Shown here: piece after piece, positions 29,779 through 32,000 of the stretch
Layout of the letters: each line of letters begins with the position of its first letter
How positions within the stretch are numbered: the stretch's first letter is position 1
Assembly: GCA_016196885.1 (NCBI GenBank)
Contig: JACPWU010000004.1
Span: forward strand, 1-32,000
Direction: 5' to 3'
Source: Chlamydiota bacterium
Lineage (GTDB): Bacteria > Auribacterota > JACPWU01
Length of the DNA stretch: 32,000 nt
Made by a program: the position numbers and the translations under genes
The notes under the pieces: model-generated
Database searches by the model: none
The model's input: the letters and a program-made list of their open reading frames with translations, nothing else
What the model was told of the DNA's origin: nothing

Positions 29779-30297
29779 ATGTCTCAAGAGAGAAAAGGGG
29801 CTGTGACATTTAAGGGAAATCCTCTCACACTCGTGGGTCCAGAGCTCAAGGTTGGAGCCCAGGCGCCTGAGTTCCAGCTTTTGGCGAATGATTTATCCGT
29901 GGTAAATTTGGCCAGTTCAAAAGGCAAGACGCGTCTTTTTAATGTGGTCCCTTCTTTGGACACGCCTGTCTGTGATTTACAGACGAAGCGTTTCAATGAA
30001 GAAGCGGGGAGATTCCCCTCTCAGATTCAGGTTTATACGGTCAGTTGTGATCTTCCCTTTGCGCAAGCAAGGTGGTGTGGTCAGGCCAAAGCAGATCGAA
30101 TTAAATTCCTTTCAGATCATCGTGATCTCTCCTTCGGTCAAGCCTATGGTCTTTGGATCAAAGAGCTTCGGCTTTTGACCCGAGCGGTGGTCATCGTGGA
30201 TGCCAATGATAAAGTTTCCTATATTCAGGTGGTTAAGGAAGTGACGAATCAACCTGATTACGAGGATGTGTTGAATTCTTTAAAGCAGAAGGTTTAA
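29779..30297 (+). CDS. tpx: Thiol peroxidase (atypical 2-Cys peroxiredoxin)
   Basis: ATG at 29779 after aaggagg. Shows VTFKGNPLTLVG, the peroxidatic-Cys motif PSLDTPVC and a resolving-Cys region YTVSCDLPFAQ. Confidence 0.9.
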   Translation: MSQERKGAVTFKGNPLTLVGPELKVGAQAPEFQLLANDLSVVNLASSKGKTRLFNVVPSLDTPVCDLQTKRFNEEAGRFPSQIQVYTVSCDLPFAQARWCGQAKADRIKFLSDHRDLSFGQAYGLWIKELRLLTRAVVIVDANDKVSYIQVVKEVTNQPDYEDVLNSLKQKV

Positions 30298-30301
30298 TAG
30301 A

Positions 30302-30387
30302 ATAGCGTACAGCGGTAAGCGTACAGCGTACAGTTAAAAAAGTAAGATTTGTTTTTACTGACCGCTGAGCGCTATACGCTGTACGCT
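30302..30387 (+). terminator. Long hairpin built from NNAGCGT / NNNCGCT heptamer arrays, followed by a T-rich tract
   Basis: Left arm 30302-30333, right arm 30360-30387, then tttcttttgg. Lies directly after the tpx stop. Confidence 0.6.
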
Positions 30388-30404
30388 TTCTTTTGGAATG
30401 AATC

Positions 30405-32000
30405 ATGAATAAATCTAAGCTCTTACGAGATCTTCTCCATCGTCCCGGCCCCGTTTTAGTGACCGGGGCCCATGATGCGATGAGTGCCAAGCTGATTGAA
30501 GAAGCGGGTTTTGACGGCATTTGGGCGAGCGGCTTTGGCATCTCAGCCGCCCAGCGCTGCCTTCCGGACGCCAATTACATGACGATGACGGAAAATCTTG
30601 AAATTGCCAAAAACATGAATGAGGTCGTCCACATTCCTGTGATTGCGGATTGTGACAATGGCTACGGCAACGCCTTGAATGTGATGAGAACCGTGGCTCA
30701 ATATGAGAAGGCAGGTATTGCAGGTATTTCTATTGAAGACAATATTTTTCCCAAAAAGTGCAGTTTCTATCCAGGTTTTAAAAGGGAACTGGTGTCGCTC
30801 GAAGAGATGGAAGGAAGGATTCGGGCTGGAAAATCTGCTCAGGGGGGGTCAGATTTTGTCCTGATTGCCCGTACAGAGGCCTTGATTGCGGGTTGGGGGA
30901 TGGAAGAGGCCTTGAAACGGGGTCGGGCTTTTGCCCGAGCGGGGGCCGATGCTGTTTTGATTCATTCCAAATCTCGAGCCCCCGATGAAGTGATTCAATT
31001 TGCAAAATCGTGGGATCAAAATATTCCTTTGGTTGTGGTGCCGACCATTTTTGATTCCATCAGTGCGGATGAGTTGCACGAGGCCGGTTTTAAAGTGATT
31101 ATTTTTGCCAATCAGCTGATTCGTTCGTGCATTCGCTCGATGCGGGAAATGCTGGGGGAATTGCGGCAGAAAAAGTATGCCGGTGCGGTGAATGATCATT
31201 TGGTTACTTTGGAAGAGGTTTATAAACTTGTGGGTGTGGATGAAATGAAGCAGGCGGAAGACACGTTTCTTCCTGTCTCCGGAAATGATGTCAAGGCGAT
31301 TATTGTCAATGCCGGATTTGAAAAGCATTTGATGCCTCTCATTGAAGATCGGCCCAAAGGGATGTTGGACATTAAGGGGAAAACCATTCTCGAACGCCAG
31401 ATAGAGGTGCTCAACGCCTGCGACATCAAGGATATTTCAGTGGTCCGGGGTTATCGCTCGGAAGCCATCCGTGTTCCTAATCTTCGCTATTATGAAAATC
31501 CAGATTATGAAGAGAGCTATATTTTGTCTTCTTTCTTTTGTGCGAGCCCCCAGATTCAGGATCGGGTGCTTTTTCTCTATGGAGACATTCTCTTCGACCG
31601 TGTGGTTTTGGAGAAACTTTTACAGTCGTCGGCGGATATTTCTCTCGTGGTTGACCTGGCTTGGTATGATGCCCATCGCCAGGGTGCTATCCCTGAAGGG
31701 CTCGAGCGGGAATTGGTGATGATGGAAGAACCTCCTCAGGCGACGTATCGTTACCTCCCTTCAGAAGAGAACCACCGCATTTTAAAAATCGGGCAGAATT
31801 TGGATCGTAGATCAGCGCATGGAGAATTTATTGGAATGGCGATGTTTTCTCCCACCGCTTCACAAGTGTTCATTCAAGAATATGAAAGATTGAAAAAGGA
31901 AGATCCAGGCGGACCCTTTCATGAAGCGCCTTCCTTGAAAAAGGCATCGCTCACGGACATGATTCAGGAATTGGTGGATCGTGGATTTCCGGTCAAGGGG
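30405..32000 (+). CDS. PEP mutase/isocitrate-lyase superfamily domain fused to a nucleotidyltransferase domain (3' partial, runs off the window)
   Basis: My own translation (not in the ORF track) is open for 532 codons to the window end. The N-terminus has GAHDAMSAKLIEEAGFDGIWASGF, ADCDNGYG and IEDNIFPKKCSF. From about residue 290 it reads KAIIVNAG...DRPKGMLDIKGKTILERQI, which is sugar-nucleotidyltransferase-like. Confidence 0.8.
   Translation, partial: MNKSKLLRDLLHRPGPVLVTGAHDAMSAKLIEEAGFDGIWASGFGISAAQRCLPDANYMTMTENLEIAKNMNEVVHIPVIADCDNGYGNALNVMRTVAQYEKAGIAGISIEDNIFPKKCSFYPGFKRELVSLEEMEGRIRAGKSAQGGSDFVLIARTEALIAGWGMEEALKRGRAFARAGADAVLIHSKSRAPDEVIQFAKSWDQNIPLVVVPTIFDSISADELHEAGFKVIIFANQLIRSCIRSMREMLGELRQKKYAGAVNDHLVTLEEVYKLVGVDEMKQAEDTFLPVSGNDVKAIIVNAGFEKHLMPLIEDRPKGMLDIKGKTILERQIEVLNACDIKDISVVRGYRSEAIRVPNLRYYENPDYEESYILSSFFCASPQIQDRVLFLYGDILFDRVVLEKLLQSSADISLVVDLAWYDAHRQGAIPEGLERELVMMEEPPQATYRYLPSEENHRILKIGQNLDRRSAHGEFIGMAMFSPTASQVFIQEYERLKKEDPGGPFHEAPSLKKASLTDMIQELVDRGFPVKG

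Follow-up and report, generated by a model that had tools for sequence, protein, structure and literature searches.

A probable PEP mutase with a cysteine in its gating loop, encoded in a predicted 2-aminoethylphosphonate lipid gene cluster

Introduction

The window (the whole 32,000-nucleotide stretch of DNA analysed here, from a Chlamydiota bacterium assembly) ends within a gene that joins a barrel of the isocitrate lyase/PEP mutase (ICL/PEPM) superfamily to a nucleotidyltransferase-like domain. The gating loop, or lid, of the barrel departs from the EDKx5NS motif of canonical PEP mutases and carries a cysteine where the C-C lyases of the superfamily have one, raising the question as to which reaction the protein catalyses and to which pathway it belongs. 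From comparisons of sequence and gene context we conclude that the N-terminal domain is likely to be a working PEP mutase, converting PEP to phosphonopyruvate with Cys in place of Asn122 (Mytilus numbering), and that it represents a conserved class of variants found in several phyla. The fusion gene very probably encodes the C-P-bond-forming enzyme of a 2-aminoethylphosphonate (AEP) lipid pathway.

The fusion gene and its domains

The original prediction described an open reading frame, missing from the list supplied with the window, that is open from an ATG at 30405 to the window end and encodes an N-terminal domain of the ICL/PEPM superfamily followed, from about residue 290, by a nucleotidyltransferase-like domain. 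All of this holds. The frame (30405..32000, + strand) has no stop within the window, and on the contig it extends a further 75 nt, its final 24 codons and stop codon lying at contig 32001-32075, to give a product of 556 aa. Residues 7-252 (30423..31160, +) form a PEP_mutase barrel (PF13714, 2.9e-60; 204 bits, cut-off 31.5), and residues 296-556 (31290..32000, +, cut by the window end) form a LicC/PntC-like nucleotidyltransferase domain. Within the latter, NTP_transf_3 (PF12804) matches residues 316-410 at 1.1e-09 (39.1 bits, cut-off 27), and the alignments of LicC, ST0452 and Tde1415 to the fusion protein all begin at residue 296.

The nearest solved structures are the PEP mutases 5UNC and 1M1B, 5UNC being matched at 1e-82 by sequence and at 1e-31 by Foldseek, in which the closest folds to the AlphaFold model are again PEP mutases. 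The score against the PEP-mutase equivalog TIGR02320 is 273.1 bits, below the cut-off of 319.55; this score and the lid motif both justify the earlier doubt that the enzyme is a standard PepM. Against the phosphonopyruvate hydrolase equivalog TIGR02321 the protein scores 252.2 bits, short of the cut-off of 374.4, and it has Cys instead of Thr at the Asn122 position.

The gating loop and the active site

The gating loop of the fusion protein reads SIEDNIFPKKCSFYPG, and within it the motif EDNIFPKKCS (30735..30764, +) replaces EDKx5NS. Asn113 (codon 30741-30743, +) stands for Lys116 of the Mytilus enzyme and Cys119 (codon TGC, 30759-30761, +) for Asn122, the two substitutions that had been predicted. 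The loop sequence was also quoted correctly at the outset, but its coordinates were one codon off: IEDNIFPKKCSF corresponds to 30732-30767, whereas 30735-30770 encodes EDNIFPKKCSFY. The lid aligns without gaps to those of the mutases 5UNC (EDKRFPKVNSF) and 1M1B (EDKLFPKTNSL) and of the hydrolase 2DUA (EDKTFPKDTSL), and Cys119 sits at the position of the cysteine in the KKCGH motif of the lyases.

The other mutase ligands are kept, namely D55, D82, D84, E111, K117, S120, R156 and H187, which are equivalent to D58, D85, D87, E114, K120, S123, R159 and H190 of Mytilus, respectively. The roles assigned to these positions are those of metal ligands, Arg159 and His190, with Asn122 and Ser123 as putative contacts to the phosphoryl group (PMC7916636). 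D55, D82, D84, E111, R156 and H187 are present in every mutase- and hydrolase-type sequence that we sampled, including those with a Cys lid. Asn122Thr is commonly given as the main change that sets the hydrolase apart from the mutase (PMC7916636), and since Asn122 is regarded as a phosphoryl contact, a change at this position could alter the outcome of the reaction.

The lyase-like look of the loop noted in the original prediction is genuine in that it resembles the EDQ..K[KR]C pattern, and it had led to lyase chemistry being considered. In such an enzyme, whether a C-C lyase or of hydrolase type, the Cys at the lyase position would act as general acid/base; K-K-C at the lyase lid positions, the similarity of EDN to EDQ and the scores below both the mutase and the hydrolase cut-offs all speak for it. 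We nonetheless consider this improbable, and the active site provides the first reasons. The lid reads KKCSF, lacking the Gly-His of K[KR]CGH, and the residue equivalent to Mytilus His190 is His187 (codon 30963..30965, +), which is His in all sampled mutase and hydrolase types; the lyases sampled alongside them carry an EDQ..K[KR]CGH lid and, in 9 of 12 cases, Glu in place of His187.

A different concern is that the mutase-like domain could be weak or dead and act as a scaffold or regulator, phosphonopyruvate being taken up or supplied by an enzyme that has escaped recognition. Two motif residues thought to be important are indeed replaced, and the signature of the fused nucleotidyltransferase domain is degenerate too. 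Set against this, none of the metal and substrate ligands varies between phyla and conservation of the lid is strong, a combination that fits purifying selection on the active site, and a search of six genomes, described below, found no alternative mutase. We judge a dead domain quite improbable, and a working mutase remains the reading that we prefer.

Cys119 is accompanied by Asn113, Tyr122, Arg127 and Phe44 (numbering of the fusion protein). The lid of the variant class is EDN-x-FPK-[RKQ]-CSFY, compared with EDK-x-FPK-x-NSF in canonical mutases; the positions that separate the two are 113, 119 and 127 together with Phe44 and Tyr273, nearly all of them in or beside the lid, and Tyr122 is invariant within the Cys-lid clade. 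Because lid residues 118-125 have pLDDT <50 in the AlphaFold model of the whole fusion, we make no geometric argument for the lid Cys.

Distribution of lid types

The odd lid is not a chance feature of a single gene. It is conserved as ED(N)x5CS in all 120 of the 120 nearest homologues, which are full-length fusions of 58-76% identity with source names of Chlamydiota and Nitrospirota MAGs, and is thus no accident. Scanning a single genome for each species recovered 19 loci with ED(N/S)x5CS, from Nitrospirales, Binatia, Omnitrophota, Acidobacteriota, Rokubacteria, Planctomycetota, Thermodesulfobacteriota and Polyangiales, the last including the cultured Sorangium cellulosum So ce56, whose genome is complete. 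Members of the class are named inconsistently at NCBI, as either 'isocitrate lyase/PEP mutase family protein' or 'phosphoenolpyruvate mutase'.

We also took a census of lid types among the best 150 representatives of 50%-identity clusters. EDKx5NS is found in 88 of these, ED(N/S)x5CS in 23 and EDNx5NS in 15, and there are a few each with N..HS, N..SS and other lids. The EDN..NS relatives retain the catalytic Asn and still fail the canonical motif, with lids that are otherwise near-identical; one of them, EDNVFPKRNSFYVG, differs from the Cys-type lid EDNVFPKRCSFYVG solely at the N/C position. Ser-containing lids (N..SS) exist among the representatives, and the Ser codons AGY are a single nucleotide change away from those of Asn (AAY) and of Cys (TGY) alike. 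Lids within the mutase group that fail EDKx5NS in further ways are EDN..NS, EDN..HS, EDN..SS, EDQ..NS and EDH..NS (for example P0129, P0131, P0146, P0150, P0178, P0210 and others, and L118-L122).

Phylogeny of the Cys-lid proteins

A phylogeny together with an active-site alignment had been proposed in the original prediction as a way of placing the protein, and the two agree: the Cys-lid proteins, with the remaining mutase ligands retained, group with mutases and hydrolases against the lyase outgroup with 100/100 support. This position on the mutase side of the split is a further argument against lyase chemistry.

The order of events within the mutase group is less clear. In two quick trees the EDN-type lids form a grade at the base, below an EDK clade with good support, which suggests many switches between Cys and Asn, but in the bootstrapped tree the backbone and the branching order inside the group are not resolved. 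An AU test gives no grounds to reject a single Cys clade (p 0.68), and constraining all Cys-lid rows to form one group yielded the tree of higher likelihood. Given these results we claim neither an ancestral position for EDN-type lids nor repeated switching. The Cys-lid lineage may conceivably have retained a lyase-type lid Cys that was present in the common ancestor of the PEP mutases, or the Cys may endow these enzymes with something absent from canonical mutases, for instance redox gating or an altered partitioning between transfer and hydrolysis; we put this forward tentatively and think it rather unlikely. If the Cys were such a relic, the Cys-lid enzymes would be a living intermediate between the C-C lyases and the C-P mutase, and C-P bond formation would need neither Asn122 nor the motif based on it.

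Gene neighbourhood

Upstream of the fusion gene a tpx-like gene ends at 30297. Between its stop codon and the fusion ATG there is a 93-nt hairpin followed by a U-rich run, UUUCUUUU (30303..30395, +; -44.4 kcal/mol, z -7.4), whose end is only ~10 nt from the ATG. This hairpin probably serves as the terminator of the tpx-like gene, marking the upstream edge of a phosphonate operon; a promoter scan of the spacer upstream of the fusion gene found no sigma-70-like promoter.

Six genes follow downstream on the same strand up to the contig end. A phosphonopyruvate decarboxylase (Ppd) is split into two subunits of the TPP-enzyme type, 170 and 191 aa long (L002:2160-3359), which jointly span the Ppd model end to end and, when read through, reach 310.8 bits (cut-off 312.5). 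Next is a class-V aminotransferase that exceeds the cut-off of the AEP aminotransferase model TIGR03301 (369.3 vs 360.8), followed by a 469-aa fusion of a nucleotidyltransferase with a CDP-alcohol phosphatidyltransferase (L002:4426-5835), in which the signature is the canonical AAGVGKRL...PK. Several of the downstream genes overlap by a few bases, and the overlaps of 4 nt between the Ppd beta-subunit and aminotransferase genes (L002:3356-3359) and of 43 nt between the aminotransferase and nucleotidyltransferase-CDP-OH genes (L002:4426-4468) suggest translational coupling. Among the six genes before the contig end there is no alpha-ketoglutarate/Fe(II) oxygenase.

Directly after the phosphonate genes are those for an HpnL-like flippase-type membrane protein (192.5 vs a cut-off of 195.65) and for HpnA (461 vs 367.65), located at L002:5845-7826, which is contig 35845-37826. 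A squalene-hopene cyclase is encoded on another contig of the genome (G000:C42:53307-55217; 768 bits, cut-off 431), and these genes together give hints that the AEP head group could be placed on a hopanoid-type acceptor.

The original prediction left the pathway open between phosphonates and other chemistry, and proposed that a canonical phosphonate pathway downstream, together with confirmed activity, would count against its doubts. The genomic half of this is what we find: with a split Ppd and an aminotransferase above the TIGR03301 cut-off, the downstream genes are those of the canonical AEP pathway.

The decarboxylase does leave room for a sulfonate analogue of this pathway, running from sulfopyruvate through sulfoacetaldehyde to taurine. 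Its subunits score about equally against the models for sulfopyruvate decarboxylase alpha, sulfopyruvate decarboxylase beta and Ppd, below all three cut-offs, so that for the split subunits HMM scores cannot separate the two activities, and the split architecture is one that we take to resemble ComDE. The aminotransferase, by contrast, passes an equivalog cut-off that is specific for AEP, split Ppd also adjoins EDN..NS and canonical EDK..NS mutases, and we know of no member of the superfamily that forms sulfopyruvate. A sulfonate product thus seems very improbable, and an AEP product remains our interpretation.

Linkage to phosphonopyruvate decarboxylase

To compare function across lid types, we counted Ppd homologues in the 10-kb flanks of each locus. 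They are present at 14 of 19 ED(N/S)..CS loci and 11 of 16 canonical EDK..NS loci, compared with 0 of 33 EDK..T/SS hydrolase-type loci and 0 of 12 EDQ lyase loci (0/45 for the latter two together). Of the five Cys-lid loci without a flanking Ppd, one is cut by a contig end, three are in genomes with a split Ppd elsewhere, and one is on a 0.9-Mb fragment. At the EDN..NS loci, which are from metagenomes, Ppd is adjacent in 5/5.

The same association is seen across 79 genomes of the phylum, in which Ppd is present in 7/7 with a mutase-type hit vs 3/72 of the others. All three genomes (3/3) of the family to which the window's genome belongs carry a Cys-lid fusion with an adjacent split Ppd, and other families of the phylum have canonical EDK..NS fusions paired with a single-chain Ppd (G012, G031, G032). 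No EDK..NS mutase was found in six genomes with Cys-lid genes: the window's own (94% completeness), the complete So ce56 genome, a Nitrospirales chromosome and three MAGs. Lyase or hydrolase-type chemistry is at odds with these counts, and would leave the Ppd and aminotransferase of these six genomes without a source of substrate.

The window's genome also has a true methylisocitrate lyase (EDQVVSKKCGH) elsewhere, in a prpD-prpB-prpC cluster, which is a further point against a lyase role for the fusion. A separate observation concerns a stop-free frame at G000:C24 ~95900-101000, reported as 3821 aa, which has a full isocitrate lyase domain in its middle (PF00463, 598 bits); it represents either a single giant protein made by fusion or a series of genes that share the frame.

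A proposed pathway and the role of the fused domain

Family assignments and gene order suggest how the pathway would proceed. Phosphonopyruvate would be made by the mutase domain, in which the Cys119 thiol is predicted to occupy the hydrogen-bonding place of Asn122, beside the migrating phosphoryl group. The adjacent two-subunit Ppd would then pull the unfavourable mutase reaction forward, and the aminotransferase would produce AEP. The nucleotidyltransferase/CDP-alcohol transferase fusion would form CMP-AEP and attach the head group to a membrane alcohol, and the HpnL-like protein, next in gene order, would be the flippase.

As for the nucleotidyltransferase domain fused to the mutase, the pyrophosphate-site signature of PntC and LicC is GXG(T/S)RX4-8PK, and Tde-PntC with Arg15Ala retains <10% activity (PMC6697681). 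The fused domain has AGFEKH at residues 303-308 (31311..31328, +), where LicC and PntC have AGLG(S/T)R; in AGFEKH...PK the second Gly has become Glu and the Arg corresponding to Arg15 has become His. The Arg position varies across the Cys-lid fusions and is also non-canonical in the sampled C-terminal fusions of canonical mutases, and the signature loop (residues 306-324) is modelled by AlphaFold at pLDDT <50. Because the signature is deviant, the Arg is variable and the cluster has a separate canonical nucleotidyltransferase, CMP-AEP may be made by an enzyme other than the fused domain, which may also not be a standard cytidylyltransferase.

Relevance to surveys of phosphonate producers

Most published counts of phosphonate producers rest on the EDKx5NS filter. 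Both Rice et al. 2019 (PMC6697681) and Li and Horsman 2022 (PMC8942020) kept only those PF13714 proteins that have it, and 22 fused proteins were removed by the filter in the former study. Acker et al. (preprint 10.1101/2020.11.04.368217) accepted up to two missing motif residues within 5 kb of Ppd, a rule by which the Cys-lid class is operationally anticipated in one survey, and in a KEGG-based lake study the Nitrospirota genes are simply called pepM. We found no description or enzyme assay of a Cys-type lid in the literature searched, which left much subscription literature outside, and no structure in the PDB. Within the literature and PDB searched, the Cys-lid proteins are therefore a conserved class with no characterised member.

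Motif-filtered censuses would miss the Cys-lid clade. With EDKx5NS present in only 88 of the 150 nearest representatives, whole lineages with full AEP clusters would go uncounted, among them Nitrospirota, Polyangiales (including the cultured Sorangium cellulosum So ce56), Planctomycetota, Acidobacteriota and the family of the window's genome. The finding also bears on the role assigned to Asn122, as the class is a natural experiment on the residue to which a contact with the migrating phosphoryl group is ascribed, and one that includes a cultured organism.

Comparison with known systems

With the methylisocitrate and isocitrate lyases the fusion protein shares a lid Cys at the same position, the two basic residues before it and an amide residue after ED. 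It differs in having Ser-Phe rather than Gly-His after the Cys and His187 rather than the Glu of most sampled lyases, in its place on the mutase side of the tree and in its gene context. The phosphonopyruvate hydrolases (PalA, TIGR02321, 2DUA) have a barrel that is 41% identical, with the same ligands, but their lid is EDK..D/V-T-S-L, Ppd is near none of the 33 hydrolase-type loci, and the score here is 252 against a cut-off of 374.

The closest resemblance is to PEP mutase itself (PepM/Ppm, EC 5.4.2.9; TIGR02320; 1PYM/1M1B of Mytilus, 5UNC of Streptomyces). The fold of the barrel is the same, the Mg2+ and substrate ligands are held in common, Arg159 and His190 included, and so are the gene partners Ppd and AEP aminotransferase. 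A C-terminal PF12804 fusion, which is found in about a third of catalogued PEP mutases (PMC6697681), is a further shared feature. The differences are the EDNx5CS lid in place of EDKx5NS, the score below the equivalog cut-off, and the co-variation of Tyr122, Arg127 and Phe44 with the change of motif.

At the level of gene clusters the counterpart is the 'Burkholderiales_CDP-OH' group of predicted phosphonolipid clusters (Li and Horsman 2022, PMC8942020), with which this locus has in common genes for a Ppm-PntC-like fusion, Ppd, AEPT, a second nucleotidyltransferase and a phospholipid-type transferase. The locus departs from that group in having no alpha-ketoglutarate oxygenase gene, in its split Ppd, in the fusion of the second nucleotidyltransferase to the CDP-alcohol transferase, in the HpnL-like and HpnA genes that follow, and in a mutase of the Cys-lid type, which the motif filter of that inventory would drop for this reason. 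The core of the predicted CDP-OH phosphonolipid family (Ppm, Ppd, AEPT, two nucleotidyltransferases and a CDP-alcohol transferase) is nevertheless present here in full.
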